From Candidatus Heimdallarchaeota archaeon B3_Heim (GTDB lineage Archaea > Asgardarchaeota > Heimdallarchaeia > Hodarchaeales > Hodarchaeaceae), in assembly GCA_003144275.1 (NCBI GenBank), contig NJBF01000053.1, positions 1-18,297 of the forward strand: a stretch of 18,297 nucleotides of DNA, in the 5' to 3' direction. Each line of letters begins with the position of its first letter. The stretch's first letter is position 1. The notes beneath the pieces were generated by a model, which made no database searches, was not told where the DNA came from, and was given only the letters and a program-made list of their open reading frames with translations. Positions 1,604 to 18,297 of the stretch are shown here, in pieces. A program made the translations under genes and the position numbers.

Positions 1604-2368
1604 TTGAGTGATGAATTAATTTTAGTCGAAAAAAAAGACTTTATTGGGAAAATTACCTTTAACAACGGCCCATTAAATATTTTGAATATTGAAATGATGG
1701 AACAGATCAATAAGACACTTGATAAGTTCCTAGAAGAAAATTCTCTCAAAGTGATTGTGTTTGATCACCTTGGAAAAGCATTCTCTGCAGGAGTCGATAT
1801 TGGGGAACACATGGGGGATTCTGTTAAAAAAATGTTAGAAGTATTCCATGGTATGTTTAAAAGGTTAAATCATATGAAAATCCCTACAGTCGCTTGTGTA
1901 AAGGGAGCTGCATATGGTGGGGGATGTGAGGTAGCTGCTTTCTGTGATATTGTATTAGCTTCAGAGAAAGCGAAATTTGGTAATCCAGAAATAAAAGTAG
2001 GAGTCTTTCCTCCTGTCTCAGCAGTCATATTTCCTTCTATACTTGGAGAGAAAAAAGCATTTGAACTTATATTACAAGGAGAGATTATCAGAGCGGAAGA
2101 AGCACACAGAATAGGCCTAGTCAATCAAGTATTCCCCTTAGAATCTTATGAACAAGATGTATCAGAATTTCTTGAAAGATTTAACAAATTAAGTACAATT
2201 GTGTTACAATATTCTAAAAAAGCTGTTAAAATAGGAATATCTGACTTTGAGACCAAATTAGACGAAGTAGAAGCTCTTTATCTCAATGAACTTATGGCAA
2301 CAACTGATGCGAATGAGGGGTTACAAGCTTTTATTGAGAAACGTCCACCTCAATGGCAGAATCGATAA
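1604..2368 (+). CDS. dch: Cyclohexa-1,5-diene-1-carbonyl-CoA hydratase (Dch/BamR-like, crotonase family), 254 aa
   Basis: Crotonase motifs AFSAGVDIGEH, GGGCE and GNPEIKVGVFPP with both catalytic Glu. The C-terminus EALYLNELMATTDANEGLQAFIEKRPPQWQNR resembles Dch/BamR. Directly upstream of had, with oah in the same cluster. Confidence 0.85.
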   Translation: MSDELILVEKKDFIGKITFNNGPLNILNIEMMEQINKTLDKFLEENSLKVIVFDHLGKAFSAGVDIGEHMGDSVKKMLEVFHGMFKRLNHMKIPTVACVKGAAYGGGCEVAAFCDIVLASEKAKFGNPEIKVGVFPPVSAVIFPSILGEKKAFELILQGEIIRAEEAHRIGLVNQVFPLESYEQDVSEFLERFNKLSTIVLQYSKKAVKIGISDFETKLDEVEALYLNELMATTDANEGLQAFIEKRPPQWQNR

Positions 2369-2435: not shown

Positions 2436-3482
2436 ATGAGAGCTGCTGTTTTTGAAAAAATAAGAGAACCATTAAAAATTGTGAATGATTATCTCTCTCC
2501 TACTATTGATGGGAGAAATGGACAAGTACTAGTGGATATCACAGCCTGTGGTGTTTGTCATACCGATTTAGGATTTCTTGATCATGGAGTACCTACAGGT
2601 AAATCTCCACCATTAATTTTAGGACACGAAATGGCTGGACGAGTACATGAAATCAGTGAGGATGTTACAAATTTTAAGAGAGGAGACCATGTCCTTATTC
2701 CCGCAGTCATTTCTTGTGGTACCTGTTTTCAATGTAGGACAGGACGGGAAAACATATGTTCAAATCAAGTTTTTTTCGGAAGTAATGTTGATGGAGGGTT
2801 TGCAGAACAGATTATGGTTCCAGCGAAAGACATATTCCATCTTCCAGTAGAAATACCTTTGGAAGAAGGATGTATTATAGCTGATGCAGTGTCTACTCCA
2901 TATCATGCTGTTAAAAATCGAGGTCAAGTCAGACCAGGTGACTGGGCTGTTGTTTTTGGGTGTGGTGGGATAGGACTCAACGTGGTCCAGAATATTAAAG
3001 CTGCAGGTGGATTACCTATCGCAGTTGACATTATCTCAGAAAAACTAGATATTGCTAAAAAACTTGGAGCTGTTAAAACACTTTCAGCAAAGGAATTAGA
3101 TGACCGTGGTATAGTAGGAGCAATCCGAAAAGCTACAGGTGGAGGTGCAGACATTGCTTTTGAAGCAATTGGAAATCCTACGACATTTAAGCAAGCTTTT
3201 AATAGCTTACGAACTGGTGGAAGATTAGTTGCTGTAGGTTATTCTCCAAAACGATGGGATGGCTTTGATATTGGTCGTGTGATGTTTCGTGAAATGGAAA
3301 TAATGGGAAGTTTGGGGTGTCGCACCGTAGATTACCCACGTATCATAGAATTAGTTAAAAATGGTACACTTGTGGTTAAACCACTTGTAACAGGAAAATA
3401 TCCCCTTTCCGAAATAAATGAAGGATTTGATGTCATGCGACGAGGTGAAGGAGTACGAACTGTTGTTTTATGTCAAGAATAA
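2436..3482 (+). CDS. had: 6-hydroxycyclohex-1-ene-1-carbonyl-CoA dehydrogenase (Had/BamQ-like Zn-dependent MDR), 348 aa
   Basis: ACGVCHTD and LILGHE (catalytic Zn), CGTCFQCRTGRENIC (structural Zn), IADAVSTPYHAVKNR, and GCGGIG...VDI (NAD-type). DHGVPT...PPLILGHE and PAKDIFHLPVEIPLEEG are typical of Had/BamQ. Adjacent to dch. Confidence 0.88.
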   Translation: MRAAVFEKIREPLKIVNDYLSPTIDGRNGQVLVDITACGVCHTDLGFLDHGVPTGKSPPLILGHEMAGRVHEISEDVTNFKRGDHVLIPAVISCGTCFQCRTGRENICSNQVFFGSNVDGGFAEQIMVPAKDIFHLPVEIPLEEGCIIADAVSTPYHAVKNRGQVRPGDWAVVFGCGGIGLNVVQNIKAAGGLPIAVDIISEKLDIAKKLGAVKTLSAKELDDRGIVGAIRKATGGGADIAFEAIGNPTTFKQAFNSLRTGGRLVAVGYSPKRWDGFDIGRVMFREMEIMGSLGCRTVDYPRIIELVKNGTLVVKPLVTGKYPLSEINEGFDVMRRGEGVRTVVLCQE

Positions 3483-3577: not shown

Positions 3578-4720
3578 ATGAAAATCGGTATTGTTGGTAT
3601 TGGTCATAGCAAGTTTGGTAGACGTGATGATGTAACAGTTCAAGAACTTGCATTTGAGCCATTTGTTGAAGCGCTTATTGACTCAGGACTTCAGCGAGAA
3701 GAGATTGACGCTACAATTATTGGGGCATCTCCCGTTTATATGACCCAAAGAAGTATCGCAGGCCCCGTCACAGAATACTTGGGATTGAATCCGCAACCTG
3801 TTTGGTTGACTGAAGCTGCTTGTAGTAGTTCCGCATCAGCTCTAAGAACCGCGTATGCATTAATTAAATCTAAAATGCATAACACTGTCTTAGTTCTTGG
3901 TGTTCAAAAGATGTTAGAAAATCCAACATCAGAAATTCTAAAGATTATGGGACGAACAGGAGATGTTCAATGGGAAGCTCCCTATGGAACAACCTTTGCT
4001 AATTATTATGCAATGTATGCGAATGCTCATATGACGAAATATGGGACATTGTCGGAACAGCTTGCTGAAGTAGCGGTAAAGAATCACTATTATGGGTCGA
4101 AGAATCGTAAAGCCATGTTCCAAAAAGAAATTACGGTTGAAAAAGTTCTTGAATCACGGATTATTTCCTCACCTTTACATCTTTATGATTGCTGTGCGAA
4201 TGCGGATGGTTCAGCAGCTCTGATAGTATCGAATGAGGAAATATCCAAAAAAATATCTGATACTCCTATCTGGGTTGAAGGTTTAGGTGCAGCAACAGCT
4301 CCGTTTTCCCTTCTCACTCGACCCGAACTGAGTACCTTAACCAGTGCTGTTGAGGCCTCACAGGCCGCGTATACGCAGGCAAAGATTGATCCAACAAATA
4401 TTGATGTAGCAGAAGTTCATGATTGTTTCACTATAGCAGAAATCATGGCTTACGAAGATTTAGGTTTTACAGAGCGAGGCAAAGGTGGAGAGTTTGTGGA
4501 GAATGCTTACATTGGTGGTAAAGTGCCAATCAATGTCGATGGAGGCCTTAAAGCAAAAGGACATCCAGTGGGAGCCACAGGGTGTTCTCAAGTCGTTGGA
4601 ATTGTCCAACAACTTCGTGGAGAAGCAGGACAATGCCAAGTGGATGGAGCAGAGAAGGGTTTAACCCACAATGTTGGTGGTCATGGCCAGTATTGTCTCG
4701 TCCATGTCTTTTCGAGGTGA
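3578..4720 (+). CDS. SCP2/archaeal-type thiolase (acetyl-CoA acetyltransferase), 380 aa
   Basis: EAACSSS (nucleophile Cys), EVHDCFT (HDCF loop, 4418-4429), GGLKAKGHPVGATG and THNVGG. Immediately followed by a DUF35 domain, the usual partner of this thiolase class. Confidence 0.9.
   Translation: MKIGIVGIGHSKFGRRDDVTVQELAFEPFVEALIDSGLQREEIDATIIGASPVYMTQRSIAGPVTEYLGLNPQPVWLTEAACSSSASALRTAYALIKSKMHNTVLVLGVQKMLENPTSEILKIMGRTGDVQWEAPYGTTFANYYAMYANAHMTKYGTLSEQLAEVAVKNHYYGSKNRKAMFQKEITVEKVLESRIISSPLHLYDCCANADGSAALIVSNEEISKKISDTPIWVEGLGAATAPFSLLTRPELSTLTSAVEASQAAYTQAKIDPTNIDVAEVHDCFTIAEIMAYEDLGFTERGKGGEFVENAYIGGKVPINVDGGLKAKGHPVGATGCSQVVGIVQQLRGEAGQCQVDGAEKGLTHNVGGHGQYCLVHVFSR
4714..4720 (+). promoter_or_regulatory. 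Shine-Dalgarno-like GAGGTGA overlapping the thiolase stop codon
   Basis: GAGGTGA includes the TGA stop at 4718-4720 and lies 4 nt before ATG 4725. It supports 4725 as the true start and translational coupling. Confidence 0.6.
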
Positions 4721-4724
4721 AGTG

Positions 4725-5936
4725 ATGAAGCAATTTGGATATCGCGATTATATCTCCCAATCCAAGGTAGGAGTACAGCTTTTAAAGTCTTTAAAAGAGG
4801 GGAAATTAGAGGGAACTCAATGTACAAAATGTAATATTCCTTATTATCCCCCTAGAGCCTATTGCCGTGAATGTTTATCCGATGGAAATATAATAGGTCT
4901 TATTTTTTCAGGTAAAGGAACGATACTATCTTTTTCAGAAGTTCAGGTTCCTCCCGCAGGTTTTGAACGTTTTGCTCCATATACAGTTTGTATCGTGGAA
5001 TTAGATGAAGGAGGCCGACTTGTTGGTTGGATTGATCCAGGATCCCAATCTCTGAAAATTGGAGATAAGGTCCAAGTAAAGCCCGAAGTGATTGAGGGAG
5101 ATCGAGTAGTTTATAAAATTACAAGAGGAACATCTCCAGATGTCGATGTAAAGGCTGAAAAAGTAGCTCAAAATCTTGTAACAGGGAGTAACAAACTTCA
5201 GGGTAAGGTTGCAATAATAACTGGAGCAGGAAAGGGGATTGGGCGTGAAATTGCTTTAAAATATGCACGAGAAGGAGCTATGGTTATTGTAGCAGCTAGA
5301 ACGCTCAGTGATATCGAAACGGTGGCAAAGGAAATCAAACAATCTGGAGGAGAAGCAACTCCTATCATATGTGATGTTGGAAATGTAGAAAGTGTTCAAC
5401 AATTAATTATGAAAACTCTAGAAAAATATGAAACAATTGACATCCTTGTGAACAACGCAGGGATTTCTAAGAGTGCCCTAATTAGTAAAATGACTGATGA
5501 TCTTTGGAATTCAGTTATTAATGTGAATTTGAAGGGTACTTTCAATTGTATTCGTGCTGTTATTCCTCATTTCTCAACAAAACGACCTCTTGGAGGGAAA
5601 ATTATTAACTTCACGTCAACCGCGGCAAAATACGGTAACGTGGGTCAAAGTGCTTATAGTGCATCAAAATGGGGTGTTATCGCCCTTTCTAAATCTGCTG
5701 CACGCGAACTAGCCACTTACAAAGTGAATGTAAACTGTATCATGCCTGGTTATATAGAAACAGCCATGACAGCAGACACTCCATCTGTTTATAAAGAGCA
5801 AACCATAGCTCAAATTCCTCAAATGCGTATTGGTTACCCCGAAGACGTAGCGAAGGTTGCTGTATTTCTAGCCTCTTCCGATTCGGATTATATGACGGGT
5901 TCAATCCTTCAGGTCGACGGTGGATTGAGGATGTAA
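4725..5936 (+). CDS. Fusion of DUF35 (Zn-ribbon plus OB-fold) and a FabG-like short-chain dehydrogenase/3-ketoacyl-CoA reductase, 403 aa
   Basis: N-terminal CTKC...YYPPRAYCREC Zn ribbon and OB fold (GKGTILSFS, PYTVCIVELDEGGRL, LKIGDKV), a linker of about 20 aa, then an SDR with TGAGKGIG, NNAG, S...YSASK and PGYIET, all in one frame. Start moved from 4671 (inside the thiolase gene) to ATG 4725. Confidence 0.88.
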   Translation: MKQFGYRDYISQSKVGVQLLKSLKEGKLEGTQCTKCNIPYYPPRAYCRECLSDGNIIGLIFSGKGTILSFSEVQVPPAGFERFAPYTVCIVELDEGGRLVGWIDPGSQSLKIGDKVQVKPEVIEGDRVVYKITRGTSPDVDVKAEKVAQNLVTGSNKLQGKVAIITGAGKGIGREIALKYAREGAMVIVAARTLSDIETVAKEIKQSGGEATPIICDVGNVESVQQLIMKTLEKYETIDILVNNAGISKSALISKMTDDLWNSVINVNLKGTFNCIRAVIPHFSTKRPLGGKIINFTSTAAKYGNVGQSAYSASKWGVIALSKSAARELATYKVNVNCIMPGYIETAMTADTPSVYKEQTIAQIPQMRIGYPEDVAKVAVFLASSDSDYMTGSILQVDGGLRM

Positions 5937-5979: not shown

Positions 5980-7179
5980 CTATTCATCAGGAGTATATGG
6001 AGGAAGTTCATATCTTAACTTAGCAGATTTTCGGTATCCTAGAATGTATGATCCTTGGATTAATTTTTGAATTTCATTAGTTCCTTCAAGAATCGTATTA
6101 GCACGTGCATTTCTCCAGTATCTTTCAACTGGAAAGTCTCCACTATAACCCATTGCACCATGGATTTGGATTGCACGATTCGCAGCATCAGAAGCATGAT
6201 TTGTAGCTTGCCATTTTGCCATAGCTGTTTCTCTAGTATTTCTAATTCCTTGGTTTTTTAACCACGCGGCTTTATAGACTAATAACTGAGATTGATCATA
6301 GCCTGCTTGCATATAGGCGATATGTTCTTGAATTAATTGTAATTTTCCAATCTCTTGACCAAATGCTTTGCGTTCATGAGAATATTTCACAGCTGCTTCA
6401 ATACTAGCTCTTATAACACCACAAGCACCAGCTGCAACTGTAAACCTACCACTATCTAACGCTGTCATGGCTATTTTGAATCCTTCTTGCTCCTTCCCAA
6501 GGAGATTTTCAGTAGGGATTCTAACATCCTGCAGTATAATTTCACCAGTATCACCTGTCCTAACCCCTAATTTATCATGAAACGAACTTGTAGAAAGACC
6601 TTGCGATTCTTTTTCTACAATGAAAGCCGAAATGTCTTTATAGCCCTTTTCCTTCCCTAATCGTGCAAAAATTAAGAAATGATCTGCTACATCAACTAAA
6701 CTAATCCATTGTTTTGCTCCATTAAGAACAAACTCATCTCCTTCTCGTACTGCTTTCGTTTGAAGATTAGCAACATCTGATCCACATCCTGGCTCCGTAA
6801 GACCGTAAGCTCCAATTTTAGTTCCTTTTCCTTGAGGTAGAAGAAATTTTTCTTTTTGTTCTTTTGTTCCCCATTGGTACATTGTTAAACTCGACAAAGC
6901 CGTATGGACTGATAATATTACACGTAACGAGGTGTCTACTCGTTCCAATTCTTCACATGCAAGAGCTAAGGCCACATAATCAAGGCCTGCGCCTCCCCAC
7001 TTCTCTGGAATGCATACTCCAAGTATCCCCAATTTTCCCATTAATGGAAGCACTTTTTTGTATACAGATTTTTGTCGTTTATCATAATCGCTAATAATTG
7101 GAGAGACTTCACGCTCTGCAAAGTCTCGAACACTATCACGTAGCATAATATGTTCTTCTGAAAGTGAAAAATCGATCAT
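5980..7179 (-). CDS. Acyl-CoA dehydrogenase, glutaryl-CoA dehydrogenase-like, 399 aa
   Basis: YGLTEPGCGSD, NGAKQWIS, ERKAFGQEIG, QIHGAMGY and ILEGTNEIQ (catalytic Glu365). ELERVDTSLRVILSVH keeps the Arg that binds the distal carboxylate in glutaryl-CoA dehydrogenases. Start set at ATG 7179 (MIDFSL) rather than TTG 7194. Substrate is inferred. Confidence 0.8.
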   Translation of the reverse strand: MIDFSLSEEHIMLRDSVRDFAEREVSPIISDYDKRQKSVYKKVLPLMGKLGILGVCIPEKWGGAGLDYVALALACEELERVDTSLRVILSVHTALSSLTMYQWGTKEQKEKFLLPQGKGTKIGAYGLTEPGCGSDVANLQTKAVREGDEFVLNGAKQWISLVDVADHFLIFARLGKEKGYKDISAFIVEKESQGLSTSSFHDKLGVRTGDTGEIILQDVRIPTENLLGKEQEGFKIAMTALDSGRFTVAAGACGVIRASIEAAVKYSHERKAFGQEIGKLQLIQEHIAYMQAGYDQSQLLVYKAAWLKNQGIRNTRETAMAKWQATNHASDAANRAIQIHGAMGYSGDFPVERYWRNARANTILEGTNEIQKLIQGSYILGYRKSAKLRYELPPYTPDE

Positions 7180-7333
7180 ACAGTAACCATCCAAGTTTTT
7201 TATTTGATATTTTGAGCTGTTATACGGAATTTTCGTTTCTATATAGAGTAGTTGAGTTGGATTGTTGTAGTAATATAATTTTTATGATGAACTAAATAAC
7301 GTGTATACTATCACGATCAGAATCAATAGAAGG

Positions 7334-8452
7334 ATGAATGCTTTGAAAGATCATAATCTTTGGAAAGAGGAATATTTTGGAACGGATCCTCCGAATATAA
7401 CGTATGAGCTAAAGCCACTGGTCAATCCAAACGGTGATACGGTGGATAACCTATTTTCAGCATGGATTATACTCAATAATCCTCAACAACTGAACTCTTA
7501 TACAACAAAAATGGTGAAAGGAGTGATAGCAGGATTTTCTCGCGCATCAATGGATCGTAATGTAGTAACAGTTGTTTTTACGGGTGCAGGTGACCGTGCA
7601 TTCTGTACAGGAGGTAATACAAAGGAATACGCTGAATATTATTCTGGGAAGCCCAACGAATACGGACTTTATATGGATTTGTTTAATGCGATGGTAGATG
7701 CTATCCTGAACTGTAAAAAACCTGTCTTATGTCGTACCAATGGAATACGAGTTGCAGGAGGGCAGGAAATCGGTATGGCTGCTGATTTAACTATTTCAGC
7801 TGATACAGCTATATATGGACAAGCTGGCCCTCGTCATGGATCTGCTCCGGACGGTGGTTCGACTGATTTTCTTCCATGGATGCTTTCTATTGAAGACGCG
7901 ATGTGGAACTGCATTTCATGTGAGTTATGGAGTGCATATAAAGTGAAGCAATTAGGAATGATAACTGAAGTCGTTCCTGTGCTAAAAAGAGATGATAAAT
8001 TCATCCGAAATCCCACCATTATAACTGACAGATATATTCACGATGGAGAAATCGTTTATGGAGAATTCCTTTCTGGAAAGGAGTATAAAGATGCGAGAGA
8101 GGTTTTGAAAAGCTGTGAAACTGATTTTTCACTTCTTGATAAGGCAATTGATGATATAATATGGAAGTTCGCGAACCTATTTCCTGGATGTTTAATGAAA
8201 TCCATCGATGGAATCCGAATGAAGAAAAAATTCTTTTGGGATCAAACAAAACTTGCCAATCGTCATTGGTTATCTGCTAATATGTCTACTGAAGCATTAT
8301 TAGGTTTTCGTGCATTTAATGAGAGGAAGTTAACTGGAAAGGACACTATTGACTTCATCCAATATCGTCAGCTAATCGCTAACGCACACCCCTTCGATCA
8401 AAATCTTATTGATACAGTTTTACCTAAACCATTGAAAAATGAGGACTCTTAA
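7334..8452 (+). CDS. oah: 6-oxocyclohex-1-ene-1-carbonyl-CoA hydrolase (Oah/BamA, ring-opening), 372 aa
   Basis: Diagnostic stretches NSYTTKMVKG, AFCTGGNTKEYAEYY, GGQEIGMAAD, GQAGPRHGSAPDGGSTDFLP and GFRAFNE match Oah/BamA. Start set at ATG 7334 (MNALKDHNL) rather than GTG 7301. Confidence 0.95.
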   Translation: MNALKDHNLWKEEYFGTDPPNITYELKPLVNPNGDTVDNLFSAWIILNNPQQLNSYTTKMVKGVIAGFSRASMDRNVVTVVFTGAGDRAFCTGGNTKEYAEYYSGKPNEYGLYMDLFNAMVDAILNCKKPVLCRTNGIRVAGGQEIGMAADLTISADTAIYGQAGPRHGSAPDGGSTDFLPWMLSIEDAMWNCISCELWSAYKVKQLGMITEVVPVLKRDDKFIRNPTIITDRYIHDGEIVYGEFLSGKEYKDAREVLKSCETDFSLLDKAIDDIIWKFANLFPGCLMKSIDGIRMKKKFFWDQTKLANRHWLSANMSTEALLGFRAFNERKLTGKDTIDFIQYRQLIANAHPFDQNLIDTVLPKPLKNEDS

Positions 8453-9660
8453 TGCAATTTTCAAACACTTTCATTCCCTATGGATGCTATTGGAGCTCTC
8501 CGTTTGTACGTTGGCAGGGGAGCTTTGCTAACCAAAACTCTATACAACTCGCTGCGGAAGTTGCTACTCTAGCTCTAAATAAACGAAAGATACAACCTGA
8601 AATCTTTAATTCAATATATTTAGGGATTACTATTCCTCAAGTACATAGTTTTTATGGTCAAACTTGGTTATCTGGTCTTCTTGGAGCTCCCAATATTACA
8701 GGGCCGATGATTGCACAAGCATGTGCCACTTCTACACGAGTAATCGCCAATGCAGCATCTGAAATCGAAACACGAAGTAACCCCAATCATACCATACTAG
8801 CCATTACTTGTGATCGAACAAGCAATGGTCCTCATATCCTCTATCCTGCTCCTTTAGCACCTGGTGGAAAACCGAATACTGAAAATTGGGTCTGGGATAA
8901 TTTTAGCTTCGATCCATATGCAAAAAATCCAATGATTCAAACTGCAGAGAATGTATCGAGAGATGCAGGAATAACACGAGAAGCCCAAGAGGAAGCTACA
9001 TTACTCCGTTACAAACAATATGACCAAGCATTAAAGAATGACGCAGAATTTCTCAGAAAATTCATGATCTCACCCATTGAGGTAAAGTCTGGAAGAAAAA
9101 TTATTGCTACAGTTGAAAAAGATGAAGGAATTTACCCTACTTCAAGAGAAGGATTAGCTAAACTAAAACCAGTGTCAAAAGATGGTTCAGTAACTTTTGG
9201 GACACAAACTCATCCAGCAGATGGAAATTGTGGATTGATTCTTACAACTCGGGAAAAAGCCAATGAAATTTCTCTAAATTCAGATTATGAGATTCAGATC
9301 CTCTCTTTTGGTCAGGCTCGTAGCAAGAAAGGATTTATGCCCATGGCTCCAGTACCTGCTTCCCAAAAAGCACTTGAATCAGCTAAACTCTCAGTTGGTG
9401 ATATTACTGCTACTAAGTTACATAATCCTTTTGCTGTTAATGATGTCTATTTTAGTGAGGAAATGGGAATTTCACTTACCTCAATAAATAACTATGGTTC
9501 ATCACTTGTATGGGGGCACCCTCAAGCCCCAACTGGGATGCGTTTACTTATTGAACTAATCGAAGAACTAGTGATAAAGAAAGGGGGTCACGGTCTTTTT
9601 ACAGGCTGTTCTGCCGGTGATTCTGCAGCAGCAGTCGTCATCAAAGTGAATTCGGTTTAA
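8452..9660 (+). CDS. Thiolase of the family found in anaerobic aromatic-degradation clusters (candidate 3-oxopimeloyl-CoA thiolase), 402 aa
   Basis: IPYGCYWSSPFVRWQG N-terminus, AQACATS (Cys), DRTSNGPH, HNPF loop (9421-9432), WGHPQAPTG (His) and GCSAGD (second Cys). The ATG overlaps the oah stop (TAATG at 8450-8454). Confidence 0.85.
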   Translation: MQFSNTFIPYGCYWSSPFVRWQGSFANQNSIQLAAEVATLALNKRKIQPEIFNSIYLGITIPQVHSFYGQTWLSGLLGAPNITGPMIAQACATSTRVIANAASEIETRSNPNHTILAITCDRTSNGPHILYPAPLAPGGKPNTENWVWDNFSFDPYAKNPMIQTAENVSRDAGITREAQEEATLLRYKQYDQALKNDAEFLRKFMISPIEVKSGRKIIATVEKDEGIYPTSREGLAKLKPVSKDGSVTFGTQTHPADGNCGLILTTREKANEISLNSDYEIQILSFGQARSKKGFMPMAPVPASQKALESAKLSVGDITATKLHNPFAVNDVYFSEEMGISLTSINNYGSSLVWGHPQAPTGMRLLIELIEELVIKKGGHGLFTGCSAGDSAAAVVIKVNSV

Positions 9661-9668
9661 ATTAAAGG

Positions 9669-9703
9669 AAAAAATTGGCAGTATTAATCCCATTACTGCC
9701 GAT
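9669..9703. terminator. Hairpin terminator between the convergent thiolase and hbd genes
   Basis: GGCAGTA (9677-9683) and TACTGCC (9694-9700) form a perfect 7-bp stem with a 10-nt loop, extendable by 3 pairs including one G-U. An A-run at 9669-9674 becomes a U-tract after the hairpin on the minus strand. Confidence 0.6.
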
Positions 9704-9718
9704 GAATTCTTTAAATTT

Positions 9719-10609
9719 TTAGAAAGACCGAGGCGTTGGAGGATTTGTGGAATAATCGTAAAATCCCATTCCTGTTTTCCTTCCAAGATGATTTGCACGC
9801 ACCATTTTTCGAAGTAATGTTGGAACACGGTACTTTGAATCTTGAAACTCTGTAACGAAATAATCAGCTATGAAAAGTGTTGTATCTAGACCTACAAAAT
9901 CTAACAGAGTAAATGGACCCATAGGATGATTTAAACCTAAAGTTATTGCTTTATCCATATCTTCAACCGTTGTTACTCCTTCTTGTAATGTAAATATTGC
10001 CTCAAGGAAGAATGGTAGCAGGAGACGATTAACTGCGAACCCAGGTGCTTCATTAACGAGTACAGTCTCTTTTCCCAATTTCTGGGAAAGTTCATCAATG
10101 AACTTATATGTTTCATCTGAAGTTTCATATCCTTTAATTATTTCAACCAATCGCATCACAGGTACAGGATTGAAAAAATGCATACCAATGAACTTATCTG
10201 GACGTTTTGTTGCTGCAGCCATGTCAGTAATAGATATTGATGATGTATTAGAAGCAAAAACCACGTTTGGATCACAGATTTCTTCCAATTCTGTATAAAC
10301 TTTACGTTTTAAGTCCCTATTTTCAATTATTGCCTCAATAACCACATCAGCTCCTTCTGTGGCTTCTTTCAAATCGGTAGTTCCTTTTATTCTACCTAGA
10401 ATTTCGTTCATTTGATCTTGAGTCATTTTTCCTTTTTTAACCCCACGTGACAAATTTTTATTAATCATAGACAGACCTTTTTCTATGAAATGGTCTTCAA
10501 TATCCCTCATGGCAACTTGATACCCAGCTTGAGCACAGACTTGAGCTATACCATTACCCATTAATCCTGCTCCTATAACACATATTTTTTTCACATTATC
10601 AATCTTCAT
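9719..10609 (-). CDS. hbd: 3-hydroxybutyryl-CoA / 3-hydroxyacyl-CoA dehydrogenase (NAD-dependent), 296 aa
   Basis: VIGAGLMGNGIAQ...RDIE (NAD-type Asp), FASNTSSIS, GMHFFNPVPVMRLVEII, PGFAVNRLL, HPMGPFTLLDFVGLD and LGRKTGMGFY. Start set at ATG 10609 (MKIDNVKK); the 20-aa extension in the ORF track is AT-rich upstream sequence. Confidence 0.88.
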   Translation of the reverse strand: MKIDNVKKICVIGAGLMGNGIAQVCAQAGYQVAMRDIEDHFIEKGLSMINKNLSRGVKKGKMTQDQMNEILGRIKGTTDLKEATEGADVVIEAIIENRDLKRKVYTELEEICDPNVVFASNTSSISITDMAAATKRPDKFIGMHFFNPVPVMRLVEIIKGYETSDETYKFIDELSQKLGKETVLVNEAPGFAVNRLLLPFFLEAIFTLQEGVTTVEDMDKAITLGLNHPMGPFTLLDFVGLDTTLFIADYFVTEFQDSKYRVPTLLRKMVRANHLGRKTGMGFYDYSTNPPTPRSF

Positions 10610-10799
10610 TTGATGAACACCGTTAAATATAATGATGGTAGAAAGTAATAAATAATTATAGAAGAGCATTTTTAGAATTTTTGTTTATTTCAAAATCGAA
10701 AGGTTGTATGAAGTGTTATAAATTCAAACTAGCAAGAAATACAAAATTATTTTACTCTAAACCTAATGAAATATCAAGAAGAACCAAGATACACATAAA

Positions 10800-12389
10800 T
10801 TACAGTTTTTGAGAAATTAAATTATTGTATCGCTCACGTAGGATTCTGTGAATGATTTTACCAGAGCCTGTTCTTGGTACATCTTCGTAATCAATAAAAA
10901 AGACCTTTTTTGGAACTTTGAATCTAGCTAAATGCTCTTTACTATGATTCATTATATCCTCCGCTAAATCTTCGGTAGCTTCAAAATTTGGTGCCAGAAC
11001 ACAAATAACGGTAACAGACTCTCCCCATTTATAATCCTGTAATCCTATCACTGCACATTCAAGTACAGCAGGCATTGCATTAATAGTTTTTTGTACTTCA
11101 GATGGAAAAACATGTTCTCCACCCGTAATTATCATATTCGCCTTTCTATCAACGAGATATAAATATCCATCCTCATCTCTTTTAGCCATATCTCCTGCAC
11201 TGAAAAAACCATCTTCCATACTCTCTAATGTTTTTTCTGGTAACTTATGGTATTCTGTGTGTTGCATAGGACCACGAGAAAATAATTCACCGATTTCTCC
11301 ATCAAGTATTAGCTTTCGTGAATTGGGATCCAAAATTTTGATATTATCTGTTCCAATACATTCCAAACCTATTGAACCAGCTTTTTTGAATTGATCTTCT
11401 GGTCTCAAAATTGTTACGAGGCCTGCTTCGGTAGAACCATATGCTTCAAAAAGCCTTACATCCTTAAATAACGCCATAACTTCATATTTCATCTTTTTTG
11501 TTGCAGGAGCTGAGGATGTCAAAAGTGATCGGATGGAACTTAGATCATATTTCTTCAGGATTTCATCTGGAAGACACAGGATTAAATTATAATGGGTGGG
11601 GATCATACTGGTAAACGTGATTTTTTCCTGTTCAAAAATTTGTAATACATCTTCAGGGTTAAATTGATATTCAAGATGAACATAGACACTTGCACCGATA
11701 TATGTGAAAACAAAAGCGTAAAACGTAGAATTAACATGGGACAAAGGCATTAAGACTAATCCGTAATCATCTGGTGTGAAGGAGAATTCTGCTGCATTGA
11801 TTAGAAAAAAGGATATATAGGAACGATGGGAGCGAACAACACCCTTAGGTTTGCCAGTTGTGCCAGAGGTATATAGAAGAATCCATGTATCTTCGGAGTC
11901 TACCTGAATTAAAGGATATTCATCTTCACCTTCTTCTACAATATCCTTGTAATAACTCCAGTTTTCTAAAACTGGAATTTCCCCAATCAAAACATGTTGA
12001 AGATTATCTAGTCCGAATTCAATGACCAAATCCCAACTCTCAATTGTTAGGTCATAATATCTATCTTGAACCATGACCATTTTTACTTCAGCATTTCGCA
12101 CGATCCAATAAAGATCAGTTGGTAGAAGTCGGAAATTCAGGGGAACAATAATTAGACCTGCTTTTGCAGCTGCGCCGTAAATTTCCATAAATTCAACACA
12201 GTTATTTAGTAGAACCGCTATTTTATCTCCTTTCTTCAAACCTCTTTTGAGTAAACCGTTCGCTAACATATTAGTTCTTATATCATAATCTCTAAAGGTA
12301 AGTGAGCGGTTTTTATCCTTAACTGCTAATTTATTGGGATATTTAAGAGCATTAACCCGAAGAATTTCTCCCAGATGTAACCAATTCAT
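10800..12389 (-). CDS. AMP-forming acyl-CoA synthetase/ligase, substrate unknown, 529 aa
   Basis: LYTSGTTGKPKG P-loop, YGSTEAG, GDMA, DRKANMIITGGEHVFPSEV and FKVPKKV...PRTGSGKI. It lacks the WLYSSGSTG and FFAYGLGN signatures of benzoate-CoA ligases as I recall them. Confidence 0.88.
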   Translation of the reverse strand: MNWLHLGEILRVNALKYPNKLAVKDKNRSLTFRDYDIRTNMLANGLLKRGLKKGDKIAVLLNNCVEFMEIYGAAAKAGLIIVPLNFRLLPTDLYWIVRNAEVKMVMVQDRYYDLTIESWDLVIEFGLDNLQHVLIGEIPVLENWSYYKDIVEEGEDEYPLIQVDSEDTWILLYTSGTTGKPKGVVRSHRSYISFFLINAAEFSFTPDDYGLVLMPLSHVNSTFYAFVFTYIGASVYVHLEYQFNPEDVLQIFEQEKITFTSMIPTHYNLILCLPDEILKKYDLSSIRSLLTSSAPATKKMKYEVMALFKDVRLFEAYGSTEAGLVTILRPEDQFKKAGSIGLECIGTDNIKILDPNSRKLILDGEIGELFSRGPMQHTEYHKLPEKTLESMEDGFFSAGDMAKRDEDGYLYLVDRKANMIITGGEHVFPSEVQKTINAMPAVLECAVIGLQDYKWGESVTVICVLAPNFEATEDLAEDIMNHSKEHLARFKVPKKVFFIDYEDVPRTGSGKIIHRILRERYNNLISQKL

Positions 12390-13598: not shown

Positions 13599-16500
13599 TT
13601 AGATGTTCTTTCGTCTACGTACTGTAATTACCAGTACGATCAAGAAAAATAGGCTTACATAAAAAACAAGAAATGGTGTGTTAACAAAAGTAGATGACGG
13701 TTGGGTAGTAATAGTTGATGAGGTACTTGAAGTAAGTGCTGTCACTGTCATACGTTTAAAGACACCTGAACCAGCACTGCCAAAATAGAGAAAATTTCCG
13801 TCTGCTGAACACACCATCATATTCGCGACGTTGTTGCCGTTAGTACCAGCCACCAAGTCAGTTAGCCCCTCGTTCCAGGATAGCCAGCTAGCACCACCGT
13901 TACAACTAATAAAGACTCCTTCACCCTGTGTAGCCAGATACAATATGTCAGGATCTCGCTTGTCAACAATGATCTCGTAGAATTCCTGATCGATATTCAA
14001 CCCAGTAGTAATTTCAAACCAATGAGCCCCACCATCAGTGCTTTTCATCACTGTCCCTCGGAATCCCTCACACCCACTTCCCTCGTTCTCCCCGTTCTTG
14101 GAACAGGCATACATCACATTTGGATTCTCAGGATCGAAATCTATGGAAAAGACCCATTGTTCACTTGGCCAACCTCGATTCCACGTTTCCCAATGACCAC
14201 CGCCATCTGTTGCGAGGTTCACCCCATTGTAAGTGCCAGCATAGATAATATCTGGGTTCTCAGGATGGAATACCAGACAAAAGACGCCATCATTGGCCCA
14301 ACCGATGTTACTTTCCTGCCAATTTTGACCCCCATCTACGCTTTTGTAGATACCAGATGGGAATGTACCAAAGTAGATCACGTTGGGGTTTTTGGGGTGA
14401 ATAAGCAGTGAAGTATATTGATAAAGTGGCCTGTTGTCCCAAATAGGCCAGAGACTCCCAAACTGGCCAAAAGCATTCATCTGTACCCATCTATCATCTG
14501 AAGTACTATAGTAATATAGTTCATATCCTAGGCTGCCACACAATAACATTCCGTCAGCAGACCATGCAAGGCTTTTAACTTGAGACGTGTGTAGTCCAGT
14601 ATTGAAAGAACTCCATGTTTTGCCTCTATCACTCGTAACAAACACTCCTTCTTCGCTGCTGACATATATCGTATCCGAATCAGTAGGATCAACCACAACA
14701 GCAGTTACTAGTCTCCCACACATCTCGTTAGCGTCCCCAAATAGAGGTATCTGACTATCAGCGCCATCATTCGATGCATAAACTCCTTTACCATAAACAG
14801 TAAAGTAGAGTCTGTCTGAATTCGTAGGATCAATTGCAAAGTTATAATATCCCTGCCTGATAGGGTCATCCACCTCAAAACTTGGTAGAAAGAAATTCTT
14901 GTCTTTCCATGTTTTTCCACCGTCCACTGTCTTGAACATGCCTCCAGGATAAGAACTTGCATAAACTACATCAGAATTTGTGGGATCAACGACTATCTGG
15001 ATGTTGTAGATTTCAGGTTTAGGTCCATCAGTAGAAGTCCAACTTACTGTATAATCTACATTGACATCACCAACGTAGACTCCCCCACCGCGGCTTCCAG
15101 CATATATTTTATTCCCGCTGATAGATAATGAGCCTATGCTTCTGAAATCAAGTCCATTATTCTGGATTGTCCAAATATCACCGCCATCTGTTGTTAGATA
15201 AACACCGTTCGCTCCTCCAGCATAAATTACGTTTGAATTCTCAGGATGTATAACTAATGCCCTACAAGGACTATTTATAACACCTCGATTTATATTTTCC
15301 CAGCTTGATCCATTATCATCACTCTTATATACTCCATGTGTTCCTATATCTTCAGGTGAGACTGGAGGGAAAAAGTTTGGATCTAAGAGCTCTTCAGGAC
15401 ATCTTCTTCCCATAATAGTAGCAGCATAAAGAATATCTGTATTAGAAGAGTCTATTTCAATGTCAAAGGTACCAACTATTGGCATAGAGTCCAAATTCAG
15501 CCAACTTACTCCTCCATTAGTTGTCTTATAAACATTCTCGCCATGTAATGAAACGTAGATCATTTGTGAATCTGTGGGATCAACGGCAATGTCAATGATG
15601 GCTCTGGGAAGGCTGCCTGTTATATCCGTTGATACTTCTCCCGTAATTCTGAACAAACTACCAAGAATAGCATTATGTTTGAAAGCTGATACATAGACAG
15701 TATTAGGGTTGCTTGGATCAAGCTTTATCTTAAACAATCTGGAGTAACCAGGACCCGCATCAAAAGCAATTTCCCAAGTCTGTCCACCATTTACCGATCT
15801 ATACAAGATAGGTTGCGCCCTACCCGCAGCATAAACTATGTCTGGATTCACAGGATGGGTAGTGACACTTGCAATCGATAAAGTGGAGATGTTCTCTAAT
15901 TCTATCCAAGATTCACCGCTATTTACAGTCTTAAACAATCCTGCCCCCCAAGGGGCGGCATAGAGTATTTCTTCGTCCGTTGGATCAATAGCTAGTTGAT
16001 TCTGGGAGTGTATTGTGCTGAAGAAGAAATGTTCGTTGAGGTTGATCCAGCTACTCCCCGCGTTGTAACTAACCCTGATATTACCTCCATATCCCGTGTC
16101 ACCTACGTAAACTGTATTAGGGTTGGTGGGGTCGATGGTCACTGAAGTAATCCCATGGGAACCGGATACATTAAGAGATGTCACCCATGAATCACCTCCA
16201 TCGGCCGTCTTACGGACTATCGCAAATTTTTGGAAAGGCTTAGGGAGGTAGCCGCTATAAACGATGTCGGAATTTGTAGGATGGACAGCTATACTATAGG
16301 TATAATCCACTTCAGATTGGTGTAGGAAACGCCAACCTTTCCCACCATTTGTGCTCTTGAAAATTCCAAAACCGTTCTTTAGCGCGTAAATTGTGTTTGA
16401 ATCTGATGATGCTGGTGCCAAAGTATACACCGAACCAAAACGGAAACCCTCACCATAGGAGTCGATAACTTTGTCCCATGAAACACCCCCGTTCGTTGAT

Positions 16501-17810
16501 TTGAAGACCTCCCCCACATCTGCTACCTCCCAGACAGTTTCTGGGTCATGGGGATCGATTACCAACTCATCAGCCCAAGGGTGAGTGATTCCGCCCTCGT
16601 TGATATTAACCCAGGAGTTTCCATAGTTGGTTGTCTTGAAAGTCCCTTCTCCATTGACTGATGCCGCATATATTGTACCACTCCCAGCTACAGCCAATAG
16701 ATTGATACCTACATTGAGCAGACCTTGGTTGATAGATGTCCAACTTTCTCCGCCGTCGGAGCTTTTGACGATACCATGGGCTCGACGCGGCAGGTAGAGA
16801 ACATTACTATCGCTTGGGTCAACCGCAATGTCATACATATCACCATTCCTTCCTGGTGGTCCAATCCAAGCCCAATTCTGCCCGTTATCACTTGATTTAT
16901 AGACATTACCTCCTGAGCCAACATAGAGCGTATCATCATTCGAAATTCTACCTATTATATTAATCATAGCGTCAGTGGAGGGAAGATGAAGTCGTGTCCA
17001 AGTTTTACCGCCATCTTGTGTTTTGAGCAGATAGATGTCATTTTTTTGATCGAATACTTCATTATGAATGTTAACTAGGCCGACGTAGATGATATTTGTA
17101 TCTTCAGGATCGACAAAGATGGTATGGATATCTGTCTCCTGTTGCTGACCGATTTTCTTCTCCTCCCAAGAAACGCCTCTATTGGTGGTGTGGTAAAGAC
17201 GACCTGTACCAACCCAAAACTCGTCATTAGCGCCGATAGCGATGTCAGCGATACCATCACCTGGCAAATTGCCTGTAATATCTGTCCAATTCTCGCCACC
17301 ATTAGCACTATAATAAGCCTTGCCAATCCCCGTACCGGCAATCAGAACCAAAGGGTTTTCCAGGCTTATCGTCACACAACTAAAGCTGTGGTCTTGGTTA
17401 AGGATTCGCCAACTCTCTCCACCATTGGTGCTCTTGTATAGCTTGCCAATATGGGCGTAAACAGTCTGCGGATCATCGGATGAAATGAGTATGTTACTGA
17501 CTTGGTTAGATGGTGACATGATCTGTTCCAGCATTGTCCATGTGGTGCCTTCATCAGTTGTTTTGTAAACGCCACCACCTGTCCCTCCAGCGTAAAGAAT
17601 GTCTGGGTTGGTTGGATCGATCTCAATGGTATTGATTATACCGCCGTAAGGACCATTTGTCTGAACCCAAGGGTTGGTATTCTTATCATCGAAGTTGTTA
17701 CTAAGAATAACAGGATAACTTGTTATGTATACAGGTGTACATGCTATTACAAAGAGAAAGATAAGCAAAGATGAAAGGAAAGTTCCTAAGATTGTTGTGT
17801 GTTTGATCAT
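13599..17810 (-). CDS. Large secreted, membrane-anchored Asp-box (BNR) beta-propeller protein (VPS10/sortilin-, YCF48- or GH74-like fold), 1403 aa
   Basis: N-terminal hydrophobic signal. About 23 repeats of [KR]-[ST]-x-[DN]-G-G-x-[ST]-W, mostly preceded by (I/V)-D-P-x-[ND]-x-x-x-x-Y. The C-terminus has a Ser/Thr linker, a TM helix and RRRK. Confidence 0.9.
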   Translation of the reverse strand: MIKHTTILGTFLSSLLIFLFVIACTPVYITSYPVILSNNFDDKNTNPWVQTNGPYGGIINTIEIDPTNPDILYAGGTGGGVYKTTDEGTTWTMLEQIMSPSNQVSNILISSDDPQTVYAHIGKLYKSTNGGESWRILNQDHSFSCVTISLENPLVLIAGTGIGKAYYSANGGENWTDITGNLPGDGIADIAIGANDEFWVGTGRLYHTTNRGVSWEEKKIGQQQETDIHTIFVDPEDTNIIYVGLVNIHNEVFDQKNDIYLLKTQDGGKTWTRLHLPSTDAMINIIGRISNDDTLYVGSGGNVYKSSDNGQNWAWIGPPGRNGDMYDIAVDPSDSNVLYLPRRAHGIVKSSDGGESWTSINQGLLNVGINLLAVAGSGTIYAASVNGEGTFKTTNYGNSWVNINEGGITHPWADELVIDPHDPETVWEVADVGEVFKSTNGGVSWDKVIDSYGEGFRFGSVYTLAPASSDSNTIYALKNGFGIFKSTNGGKGWRFLHQSEVDYTYSIAVHPTNSDIVYSGYLPKPFQKFAIVRKTADGGDSWVTSLNVSGSHGITSVTIDPTNPNTVYVGDTGYGGNIRVSYNAGSSWINLNEHFFFSTIHSQNQLAIDPTDEEILYAAPWGAGLFKTVNSGESWIELENISTLSIASVTTHPVNPDIVYAAGRAQPILYRSVNGGQTWEIAFDAGPGYSRLFKIKLDPSNPNTVYVSAFKHNAILGSLFRITGEVSTDITGSLPRAIIDIAVDPTDSQMIYVSLHGENVYKTTNGGVSWLNLDSMPIVGTFDIEIDSSNTDILYAATIMGRRCPEELLDPNFFPPVSPEDIGTHGVYKSDDNGSSWENINRGVINSPCRALVIHPENSNVIYAGGANGVYLTTDGGDIWTIQNNGLDFRSIGSLSISGNKIYAGSRGGGVYVGDVNVDYTVSWTSTDGPKPEIYNIQIVVDPTNSDVVYASSYPGGMFKTVDGGKTWKDKNFFLPSFEVDDPIRQGYYNFAIDPTNSDRLYFTVYGKGVYASNDGADSQIPLFGDANEMCGRLVTAVVVDPTDSDTIYVSSEEGVFVTSDRGKTWSSFNTGLHTSQVKSLAWSADGMLLCGSLGYELYYYSTSDDRWVQMNAFGQFGSLWPIWDNRPLYQYTSLLIHPKNPNVIYFGTFPSGIYKSVDGGQNWQESNIGWANDGVFCLVFHPENPDIIYAGTYNGVNLATDGGGHWETWNRGWPSEQWVFSIDFDPENPNVMYACSKNGENEGSGCEGFRGTVMKSTDGGAHWFEITTGLNIDQEFYEIIVDKRDPDILYLATQGEGVFISCNGGASWLSWNEGLTDLVAGTNGNNVANMMVCSADGNFLYFGSAGSGVFKRMTVTALTSSTSSTITTQPSSTFVNTPFLVFYVSLFFLIVLVITVRRRKNI

Positions 17811-17955: not shown

Positions 17956-18297
17956 CACTGGCCGTTTTAAGTCTAATGGATTAGTTCATCACATTTTTAT
18001 CACCTGACCTTTAAAATAACCTTTCCGCTATCAAGTAAGAGTTAGGCCACGGTTCCAAGTCTGAATAACGTAAATTCTCTAGTAATGATGTTAAATGATC
18101 TTGCCAACGAGTAAAACCGAGAAGGAGAAGATAATAAAAGAGGATGATTTGTAATAAAGTCACTAACAAACAATGGGTGACAAAACTCATCCAAGATTTC
18201 CCCAATGGACGTTTAATTGTGGTGTGTTGTTTAATCCATTGAAACAAGGTTTCGATCTCCCAGCGTTCCTTTTGGAGTTGAAGCACCGTTAAGGGAG
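17956..18297 (-). mobile_element. Downstream end of an IS4-family insertion sequence (continues beyond the window)
   Basis: Contains the transposase C-terminus. The candidate terminal inverted repeat starts CACTGGCCGTTTTAAG at 17956, resembling CACT-starting IS4-family ends as I recall them. The boundary is tentative because the partner repeat is outside the window. Confidence 0.55.
18011..18297 (-). CDS. IS4-family DDE transposase, C-terminal part (5' partial)
   Basis: The frame stays open upstream of GTG 18286 to the window edge (..PLTVLQLQKERWEIETLFQWIKQHTTIKRPLG). R-(3)-E-(6)-K spacing matches the IS4 YREK signature, and RWxIExxFxWIKQH is typical of the family. Confidence 0.85.
   Translation of the reverse strand, partial: PLTVLQLQKERWEIETLFQWIKQHTTIKRPLGKSWMSFVTHCLLVTLLQIILFYYLLLLGFTRWQDHLTSLLENLRYSDLEPWPNSYLIAERLF

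Follow-up and report, generated by a model that had tools for sequence, protein, structure and literature searches.

An NADP(H)-type short-chain dehydrogenase fused to DUF35 is linked to the ring-opening hydrolase of anaerobic benzoyl-CoA degradation in Asgard archaea

[quoted passage not shown] The cofactor signature of the DUF35-fused dehydrogenase is conserved and of the NADP(H) type, so NADPH, not the textbook NADH, is the probable product of the step that comes after ring opening. The protein is encoded in the window, a stretch of 18,297 nucleotides that stems from an archaeon of the Hodarchaeales/Heimdall type for which benzoate breakdown without oxygen is predicted. We observed the motif and its conservation directly, as well as the domain architecture and the genetic linkage to Dch, Had, Oah and Bzd; which cofactor and substrate are used, in which direction the enzyme works and what becomes of the NADPH are inferred from these observations. 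A literature search returned no report of the cofactor of 3-hydroxypimeloyl-CoA dehydrogenase and no description of a DUF35::SDR fusion.

Gene neighborhood and domain architecture

The genes of the window that bear on this interpretation are the following:

1604..2368, plus strand: Dch-like enoyl-CoA hydratase (best NCBIfam match TIGR03189, 184.7 bits, below the cut-off of 292.5)
2436..3482, plus strand: Had-like Zn-dependent MDR alcohol dehydrogenase (best NCBIfam match TIGR03201, 219.4 bits, below the cut-off of 338.65)
3578..4720, plus strand: archaeal-type (SCP-x-like) thiolase, the DUF35 partner (NCBIfam PRK06064, 467.7 bits, cut-off 420)
4725..5936, plus strand: DUF35::SDR fusion gene (403 amino acids plus stop)
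5980..7194, minus strand: glutaryl-CoA-dehydrogenase-like acyl-CoA dehydrogenase (NCBIfam GlutCoADH_Des, 352 bits, below the cut-off of 470)
7301..8452, plus strand: ring-opening hydrolase Oah (TIGR03200, 567.3 bits, cut-off 464.45)
8452-9660, plus strand: classical thiolase II, C4 end of the pathway
9719-10669, minus strand: NAD-type Hbd (Asp56), C4 end of the pathway

The first four of these, Dch-Had-thiolase-DUF35::SDR, form a conserved operon led by Dch, which is kept in eight loci (L009, L010, L011, L114, L116, L118, L120 and L121). The acyl-CoA dehydrogenase corresponds to the step after thiolysis. We consider ATG 4725 (MKQFGY...) to be probably the true start of the fusion gene, rather than the ATG at 4671 proposed by the ORF finder, because it gives 403 amino acids, as in most homologs, and lies 4 nt past the thiolase stop. 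The fusion protein is organized as follows:

4788..5078, plus strand: DUF35 part, with a Zn-ribbon (about 4788-4883) and an OB fold (about 4908-5078), from Pfam matches
5133..5186, plus strand: flexible DUF35/SDR linker (residues 137-154 of the 403-residue protein; AlphaFold2 pLDDT below 50)
5205..5933, plus strand: classical SDR domain of the FabG-like type; N-S-Y-K tetrad intact, NNAG motif present (adh_short, 208.8 bits)
5220..5243, plus strand: Gly motif TGAGKGIG (codons act gga gca gga aag ggg att ggg; Lys at 5232-5234)
5298..5300, plus strand: Arg directly after beta-2 (VIVAA-R-T), the position of Asp in NAD-type SDRs

The zf-ChsH2, OB_ChsH2_C and adh_short domains all exceed their Pfam cut-offs, the DUF35 part with 38.6 bits for PF12172 and 55 bits for PF01796. 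In the family alignment, C33, C36 and C47 of the Zn-ribbon are invariant; C50, the fourth cysteine of the window protein, completes the CxxC...CxxC motif and is absent from the list of invariant columns. A four-Cys Zn-ribbon, an OB fold and an adjoining gene for an SCP-x-type thiolase are thus all present, as in a DUF35 adaptor. The linker columns are poorly conserved, and the AlphaFold2 model (mean pLDDT 70, pTM 0.56) serves to define the domain limits and the disordered linker, not cofactor contacts. Likewise, the C-terminal domain shows the features of a classical, FabG-like SDR, with TGAGKGIG, VNNAG and YSASK all present and an invariant catalytic tetrad (N268, S298, Y311, K315).

Cofactor fingerprint

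Basic residues at two positions, in the Gly motif and after beta-2, define the cP1 and cP3 coenzyme classes of the classical SDRs (PMC8007833). The fusion SDR conforms to this NADP(H)-type rule with the Lys at 5232-5234 and the Arg at 5298-5300: from 5280 onward, atg gtt att gta gca gct aga acg encodes M-V-I-V-A-A-R-T, and the end of beta-2 holds neither Asp nor Glu. A preliminary description had noted both motifs and had contrasted them with the NAD-type Asp in the Had-like MDR (GCGGIG...IAVDI, Asp198) and in Hbd (GAGLMG...AMRDI, Asp56), all of which is borne out by the codon reading. Its proposal of an NADP(H) preference is sound as a prediction, in agreement with the coenzyme classes and with conservation across the family.

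The alignment of full-length DUF35::SDR fusion homologs shows [K/R] in the Gly motif together with A-R-T after beta-2 in 64 of 65 members. Only P0061 departs from this, with both positions switched to the NAD pattern (TGAGSGIG, VVVVDMN), which suggests that the two positions act as one functional unit. Among the 48 nearest unfused SDRs, by comparison, 26 have the NAD-type Asp at the end of beta-2 and only eight have both basic residues, three of the latter being short Asgard relatives (255-303 amino acids) that share the motif of the R-type fusions, a subfamily comprising P0065-P0072. Judged from these alignments, the basic fingerprint goes beyond chance, since it is kept in nearly all fusions, whereas Asp is so frequent in the unfused SDRs. 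Its most telling feature is the Arg, instead of an Asp, after beta-2.

The fingerprint could nevertheless mislead, if the enzyme relied on NAD+ or made equal use of both cofactors, the basic residues being a legacy of a FabG ancestor without physiological meaning. For a minority of SDRs, the cofactor predicted from such fingerprints is wrong, and some SDRs with the Arg use both cofactors. A PDB search with the 48-residue cofactor segment is suggestive at most, in that it recovered many NADPH-dependent enzymes (malonyl-CoA reductase, 11-beta-HSD1, naphthol reductases and carbonyl reductase 1cyd) but NAD-dependent enzymes as well. We nonetheless regard this explanation as rather unlikely, given the near-complete conservation of the Arg and of the missing Asp in the family, the paired change in P0061 and the separate clade of Oah-linked SDRs described below. 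The closest solved relatives, 2et6 (VVVND) and 4nbu (VVIADF), have an Asp at the end of beta-2, and these are enzymes that we take to be NAD(H)-dependent. The best-scoring of the solved relatives is the yeast peroxisomal MFE-2 (3R)-hydroxyacyl-CoA dehydrogenase (2et6), which resembles the fusion SDR in being FabG-like and acting in catabolic 3-hydroxyacyl-CoA oxidation, but which has an NAD-type Asn-Asp at the end of beta-2 in both of its SDR domains and no DUF35.

The reference reaction of EC 1.1.1.259 is given with NAD+. The fingerprint had initially been called unexpected for a catabolic dehydrogenase, which is fair when measured against this reaction, but it looks like the rule for the Oah-linked unit.

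Linkage to the lower benzoyl-CoA pathway

In a set of 301 Asgard genomes, Oah was present in all 15 genomes with the fusion, and the fusion in none of the 284 genomes without Oah; these counts are not independent because the fusion genomes belong mostly to one GTDB genus. The Oah gene follows immediately after the fusion operon in G238, lies at a distance of at most 2.5 kb in G000, G107, G181, G292 and L011, and is 13-128 kb away in G256, G136 and G208, while the fusion in G025 is found in an unrelated gene context. Most fusion genomes also carry an ATP-dependent Bzd-type reductase, often in one supercluster with the fusion. The Bzd operon abuts the fusion operon in G181 and G292, and BzdN, BzdO and BzdQ of G000 exceed their NCBIfam cut-offs. 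In the genomes with this reductase, an acyl-CoA ligase, a glutaryl-CoA-dehydrogenase-like acyl-CoA dehydrogenase, Hbd and thiolase II are encoded as well. The fusion is thus linked to, or co-occurs with, Oah, Dch, Had and benzoyl-CoA reductase. Bzd, Dch and Had also occur in a second Asgard family (G204), where only a crotonase of 31% identity takes the place of Oah and no DUF35::SDR fusion was found; the fusion therefore tracks Oah itself.

One alternative is that the ring-pathway enzymes work mainly in the reductive direction, such that glutaryl-CoA and acetyl-CoA are condensed, pulled by the NADPH-dependent reduction of 3-oxopimeloyl-CoA, and that Oah, Had and Dch in reverse produce cyclohexane-carboxylate-type acids as an electron sink, or that the flux goes either way depending on conditions. 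Syntrophus aciditrophicus runs the ring pathway in both directions, and in the Sulfolobus acidocaldarius complex discussed below, a Claisen condensation is pulled by just such an arrangement, a condensing-type thiolase with a tethered NADPH-type reductase. The relatives of the thiolase and DUF35 in Methanothermococcus thermolithotrophicus point the same way. Moreover, BzdO was not found in three genomes that bear both the fusion and Oah (G102, G133 and G280), so that the module can exist without ring reduction. The combination of Bzd-type reductase, ligase, acyl-CoA dehydrogenase, Hbd and thiolase II is however a catabolic layout, Had and Hbd are NAD-type, and none of our data are specific to the reverse direction. 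We therefore consider a mainly reductive pathway unlikely.

Unfused triads beside Oah

Among 80 metagenomic Oah loci, we identified 16 unfused SDR-thiolase-DUF35 triads beside Oah. Like the fusion unit, they combine the three activities with an Oah neighbor, and all 16 SDRs read [T/N]-[Y/F]-R-[K/R]-H, with Arg in the column of the Arg of the fusion and no Asp. They differ in that the activities are encoded by three separate genes, in the order SDR-KT-DUF35, on contigs of uncultured organisms; their SDRs, in which Q, L, M or I replaces the Lys of the Gly motif, make up a clade of their own, apart from the Asgard fusions, and their thiolases share only about 37% identity with the window thiolase. 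In contrast, SDRs beside Oah that lack a KT/DUF35 partner carry Asp. The linkage to an SDR is not universal, since no SDR adjoins the KT-DUF35-Oah-ECH operons of three bacterial genomes (G301, G302 and G305). A contig scan with patterns from the fusion alignment (DILVNNAG and similar ones, which are generic to FabG) returned 80 loci, all with ordinary bacterial SDRs and none with a KT/DUF35 pair or a true Oah. A catabolic precedent is the ech-thiolase-SDR trio Gmet_2057-2059 of Geobacter metallireducens, which is induced on benzoate (PMC1924859).

Comparison with known thiolase-DUF35 systems

The best-studied archaeal KT/DUF35/SDR complex is biosynthetic, which speaks against a catabolic reading: in S. 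acidocaldarius, the KT/DUF35 pair Saci_1121/1120 binds the FabG-like ketoacyl-CoA reductase Saci_1104, which is strictly NADPH-dependent and (R)-specific (bioRxiv 10.1101/2024.07.05.601840). As in the fusion unit, an archaeal thiolase, a DUF35 adaptor and a FabG-like SDR are joined in one physical assembly. However, the S. acidocaldarius components are separate proteins whose further partners are a MaoC dehydratase and an MDR enoyl reductase, whereas in the fusion unit DUF35 and the SDR are one polypeptide that is tied to Oah, Dch, Had and Bzd, with no MaoC found; a DUF35::SDR fusion is not mentioned in the preprint.

The preliminary description had left two physiological readings open, chain elongation or fatty-acyl synthesis on the one hand and NADPH harvest from 3-hydroxypimeloyl-CoA on the other. 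Our comparative genomics favors the harvest, which fits the restriction of the fusion to Oah-bearing genomes, its operon with Dch and Had, the nearby Oah and BzdNOPQ genes, and the unfused triads with Arg and no Asp. The other reading would make the genes an ACP-independent module for fatty-acid synthesis or elongation of the S. acidocaldarius type, with the ring-pathway neighbors being incidental. It is formally attractive since the four-gene operon consists of a thiolase, a ketoreductase, a crotonase and an MDR, and KT/DUF35 pairs are numerous in Asgard genomes; G000 has separate pairs on C43 and C47. But the adjoining MDR keeps the Zn-ligand motifs of alcohol dehydrogenases along with its NAD-type Asp and has Had as its best match, a crotonase would need the (S)-alcohol whereas FabG-like enzymes make the (R)-form, and the unfused triads are located directly beside Oah in many unrelated contigs. 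No convincing MaoC dehydratase was detected in G000 (94% complete), where the sole PF01575 match had 30.5 bits in an open frame of 67 amino acids. Elongation is thus not supported, and we reject a fatty-acid synthase as the main reading on account of the phyletic test, the MaoC search and the MDR motifs; we consider such a module quite improbable overall.

The closest solved structure for the DUF35 part is chain 6esq_E (E = 1.6e-16) of the thiolase/HMG-CoA synthase/DUF35 complex of M. thermolithotrophicus (6esq, 6et9), which, together with 7yvy, also provides the closest solved thiolases. In this complex, too, DUF35 is a docking adaptor for channeling, but the partner is HMG-CoA synthase, not an SDR, and the product is used for mevalonate synthesis. 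The thiolase and DUF35 of the window are closest to such condensing archaeal acetoacetyl-CoA thiolase/DUF35 pairs, an observation that also runs counter to the catabolic reading.

BbsCD and BbsAB of anaerobic toluene degradation offer a catabolic parallel, in which an SDR step is followed by a thiolase with a DUF35/Zn-finger subunit. Both BbsD (7pcs_B, 3.7e-49) and BbsB (7pxp_C, 4e-47, the latter for the window thiolase) are recognizable relatives. They differ from the fusion unit in being unfused and in acting on another substrate, and the BbsCD dehydrogenase is NAD+-dependent. The window thiolase is not a BbsB equivalog (NF053628, 178.6 bits against a cut-off of 750), and BbsA was not among the solved-structure matches of the DUF35 part.

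Proposed mechanism and implications

In the mechanism that we propose, the protein consists of an active, FabG-like SDR in its C-terminal half, which would prefer NADP(H), and of an N-terminal DUF35 half by which the SDR is docked onto the thiolase, whose gene lies 4 nt upstream. The two enzymes would jointly perform the two steps that come after the hydrolytic opening of the ring in anaerobic benzoyl-CoA degradation: the SDR would convert 3-hydroxypimeloyl-CoA and NADP+ to 3-oxopimeloyl-CoA and NADPH, and the thiolase would cleave 3-oxopimeloyl-CoA to glutaryl-CoA and acetyl-CoA. The exergonic thiolysis could, via the tether, pull an oxidation that is unfavorable with NADP+, and the gain per ring would be one NADPH, which is more strongly reducing than NADH. 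A plausible sink for it would be the NuoG/GltD-like Fe-S flavoprotein encoded right after BzdNOPQ, which could hand electrons on to the ferredoxin for ring reduction. This 859-residue protein follows BzdQ in nine of ten Asgard loci (in G000 on contig C46, positions 8525-11104), and in Azoarcus, BzdV is annotated as a putative NADPH:ferredoxin oxidoreductase (PMC5658619). FabG-like SDRs are usually (R)-specific, and a stereochemical mismatch between the Oah product and the SDR is therefore possible.

The enzymes acting just past ring opening in the anaerobic degradation of aromatics are ill-defined, and in the publications consulted they go by generic names such as "fatty acid oxidation" genes, "3-hydroxyacyl-CoA dehydrogenase" or "thiolase family protein." Our findings indicate a specific and widespread unit of SDR, SCP-x-type thiolase and DUF35, for which NADP over NAD is predicted in two separate SDR clades. 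If this is true, the redox balance of benzoate-degrading anaerobes changes in that one reducing equivalent is NADPH, and the Asgard fusion represents a natural Rosetta stone for the docking of a dehydrogenase on a thiolase. It also cautions against taking KT/DUF35/SDR genes in Asgard genomes as evidence for fatty-acid synthesis.

A more far-reaching idea, which we put forward as speculation with a low chance of being correct, is that the SDR-thiolase-DUF35 unit is a general, unrecognized NADP-linked module of anaerobic ring degradation. With the dehydrogenase tethered or fused to the thiolase, thiolysis would drive NADP+ reduction, and the one NADPH per ring would be returned through the NuoG/GltD-like Fe-S flavoprotein to ferredoxin for the next ring in a closed two-electron loop, with the pathway also being reversible towards alicyclic acids.

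Cofactor motifs of the fused dehydrogenase

The window, contig C52 of a 3.95-Mb genome that is 94% complete, has its top protein matches in Hodarchaeales, Heimdallarchaeota and other Asgard archaea, and its genes are arranged in the following order:

3-1322, - strand: CCG (HdrD-like) gene
Dch-like hydratase
Had-like Zn-dependent MDR
3578-4720: SCP-x-type thiolase (KT)
4725-5936, + strand: DUF35::SDR fusion
glutaryl-CoA-dehydrogenase-like ACAD
7301-8452: ring-opening hydrolase (Oah)
thiolase II
9719-10669: Hbd
acyl-CoA ligase

The fusion lies in an open reading frame (4671-5936) in which a DUF35 domain, made up of a Zn-ribbon and an OB fold, precedes a complete classical SDR, the two being joined in one chain by a linker of about 18 residues that is predicted to be disordered. 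Most of its homologs have 403 aa, with an N-terminus that corresponds to a start at 4725, 4 nt past the stop of the upstream thiolase. The preliminary description had assigned an NADP(H) fingerprint to the SDR, and the translation bears this out: TGAGKGIG is encoded at 5220-5243 and the Arg of VIVAART at 5298-5300, with no acidic residue at the end of beta-2, whereas the neighboring Had-like MDR (GCGGIG...IAVDI) and Hbd (GAGLMG...AMRDI) are of the NAD type, as also described there.

In an alignment of full-length proteins, 64 of 65 fusions combine a Lys or Arg within the Gly motif with A-R-T after beta-2. The sole exception, P0061, carries TGAGSGIG and VVVVDMN, both positions having switched together to the NAD pattern, and is placed on a long branch nested within the Asgard fusion clade; the protein comes from a metagenomic contig some 2 kb long. 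The nearest unfused SDRs are mixed, with Asp at the end of beta-2 in 26 of 48 and both basic residues in only eight, three of which are short (255-303 aa) Asgard relatives with the motif common to the R-type fusions (P0065-P0072). Since many Asp-bearing unfused relatives also have Arg in the Gly motif, the Lys alone says little; the informative mark is the Arg that replaces Asp after beta-2.

It could nevertheless be that the fingerprint mispredicts the cofactor of the fusion SDR. The closest solved relatives, the yeast MFE-2 (3R)-hydroxyacyl-CoA dehydrogenase (2et6) and a FabG (4nbu), bear Asp, and both are NAD(H)-dependent. A structure search with the cofactor segment alone recovered mostly NADPH enzymes and some NAD enzymes, a result that is only suggestive.

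Unfused units beside Oah

What this analysis adds is a comparison of the cofactor motifs of fused units with those of unfused ones. A metagenome scan with the Oah alignment identified 80 loci, with an SDR nearby in 36 and a thiolase plus DUF35 in 20, the recurrent order being Oah-SDR-KT-DUF35. All 16 SDRs adjoining an SCP-x-type thiolase read TGGS[Q/L/M/I]GIG ... [T/N]-[Y/F]-R-[K/R]-H, with Arg in the alignment column of the window's Arg and no Asp, which makes the NADP-type pattern look like a general property of the Oah-linked SDR/thiolase/DUF35 unit, not one peculiar to the window gene. Five Oah-adjacent SDRs that are not paired with such a thiolase have Asp at the beta-2 site, and four of these, for which the downstream neighbor is visible, are located beside an ACAD, ligase or MDR.

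In a maximum-likelihood tree, the SDRs of the unfused triads are fully supported as one clade and those of the Asgard fusions as another, separate one. Independent recruitment of the two is at most suggested, because the grouping of the fusions with ordinary FabG-like proteins has weak support (84/69). A KT-DUF35-Oah-ECH operon without an adjoining SDR is present in a member of the Desulfomonilaceae (L131, G302:C2, 8201-12134) and in another deltaproteobacterial genome (L130), and the thiolase/DUF35 link to Oah thus exists in bacteria too.

Phyletic distribution

Among 301 Asgard genomes, Oah matches (E <= 1e-60) were obtained in 17, of which 15 were over the family cut-off. The fusion is present in 15 genomes, all 15 of which have Oah, and was found in none of the 284 Asgard genomes without Oah, counts that are not independent events because 14 of the 15 fusion genomes share one GTDB genus (the remaining one, G025, is from a different family). 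Oah without the fusion is seen in two genomes, which are 70% and 76% complete; in one of them the match to Oah is only partial. BzdO is far commoner (46 of the 301 genomes; 45 above the family cut-off, against 15 for Oah); several BzdO matches in family f17 hold a single in-frame TAG or TAA.

In G204, a genome from a second family, orthologs of Bzd, Dch and Had are clustered with a ligase and thiolase II (L220, G204:C13, 4113-19980), with only a 31%-identical crotonase at the place of Oah. The KT-DUF35::SDR fusion was not found in G204, the family of which may use a different ring-cleaving hydrolase. Because this family has Bzd, Dch and Had with neither Oah nor the fusion, the fusion tracks Oah itself, which points to the Oah product, 3-hydroxypimeloyl-CoA, as the substrate of the SDR.

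The SDR/thiolase/DUF35 unit is in principle reversible, and fatty-acyl synthesis had been raised as an option in the preliminary description. A role as fatty-acid synthase is, however, disfavored by the confinement of the fusion to Oah genomes among the 301, by the missing MaoC dehydratase in a search of the window's own genome, and by the MDR, which is a Zn-ADH of the NAD type. That the unit acts reductively within the ring pathway, or in both directions, we regard as rather unlikely.

Proposed mechanism

Our preferred reading is an NADP(H)-preferring 3-hydroxypimeloyl-CoA dehydrogenase tethered to its thiolase. DUF35 proteins bind SCP-x-type thiolases and keep a partner enzyme in place; the nearest solved DUF35 and thiolase are those of the M. 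thermolithotrophicus thiolase/HMG-CoA synthase complex. In S. acidocaldarius, a strictly NADPH-dependent FabG-like reductase is bound by a KT/DUF35 pair (bioRxiv 10.1101/2024.07.05.601840), whereas the window gene has the DUF35 adaptor and the SDR in a single polypeptide. The SDR would oxidize 3-hydroxypimeloyl-CoA with NADP+ and the oxoacyl-CoA would be handed directly to the thiolase, where thiolysis to glutaryl-CoA and acetyl-CoA would pull the unfavorable oxidation. The NADPH might be used in biosynthesis or, more speculatively, by the flavoprotein encoded after BzdQ.

Gene neighborhood

The window Oah scores 567 bits against TIGR03200 (cut-off 464), and the Dch-like and Had-like genes score under their NCBIfam cut-offs. 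Two modules recur in related genomes: CCG followed by Dch-Had-KT-DUF35::SDR (module A), and (ACAD) Oah-thiolase II followed by Hbd-ligase (module B). They adjoin in G000 (the window's own genome), G107, G181, G238, where Oah is directly 3' of the fusion, G292 and L011, and are separated by 13-128 kb in G208, G136 and G256.

The CCG gene is always divergent from the Dch-Had-KT-fusion operon, and has homologs in L009, L010, L116, L118, L120 and L121 (46-70% identity); its product may be a partner of the pathway in electron transfer. Two more thiolase/DUF35 pairs without a fused SDR are located on C43 (68473-69944) and C47 (32332-33900) of G000, with thiolases of 35% and 31% identity, and one of these pairs presumably serves the mevalonate pathway. 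The catabolic cluster is adjoined by a gene for a 1403-aa protein of BNR/sortilin-Vps10-type repeats (13599-17810, - strand), and a transposase fragment is found at 18011-18295.

Bzd loci and a candidate electron donor

BzdN, BzdO and BzdQ are over the NCBIfam cut-offs on C46 of G000, where a GNAT-BzdN-BzdO-BzdP-BzdQ operon is followed by a gene for an 859-aa protein (L031, 3481-11104). This is a NuoG/GltD-like Fe-S flavoprotein, with 2Fe-2S, NuoG-type and 4Fe-4S domains and a GltD/NfnB-like NAD(P)H-flavin module. The operon with such a gene after BzdQ is kept in nine of 10 Asgard Bzd loci, from three families, and abuts module A in G181 and G292. A candidate function for the protein is that of an NAD(P)H:ferredoxin oxidoreductase feeding the ring reductase; it is analogous to Azoarcus BzdV, a putative NADPH:ferredoxin oxidoreductase (PMC5658619).

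L031 also contains an aldehyde:ferredoxin-oxidoreductase-family gene (685-2568), homologs of which are present in L214-L217, L222 and L223. In L215 (G181), L216 (G292) and L222 (G262), it has the CCG gene on one side and the Bzd operon on the other; in the remaining listed g1 loci it adjoins the Bzd operon.
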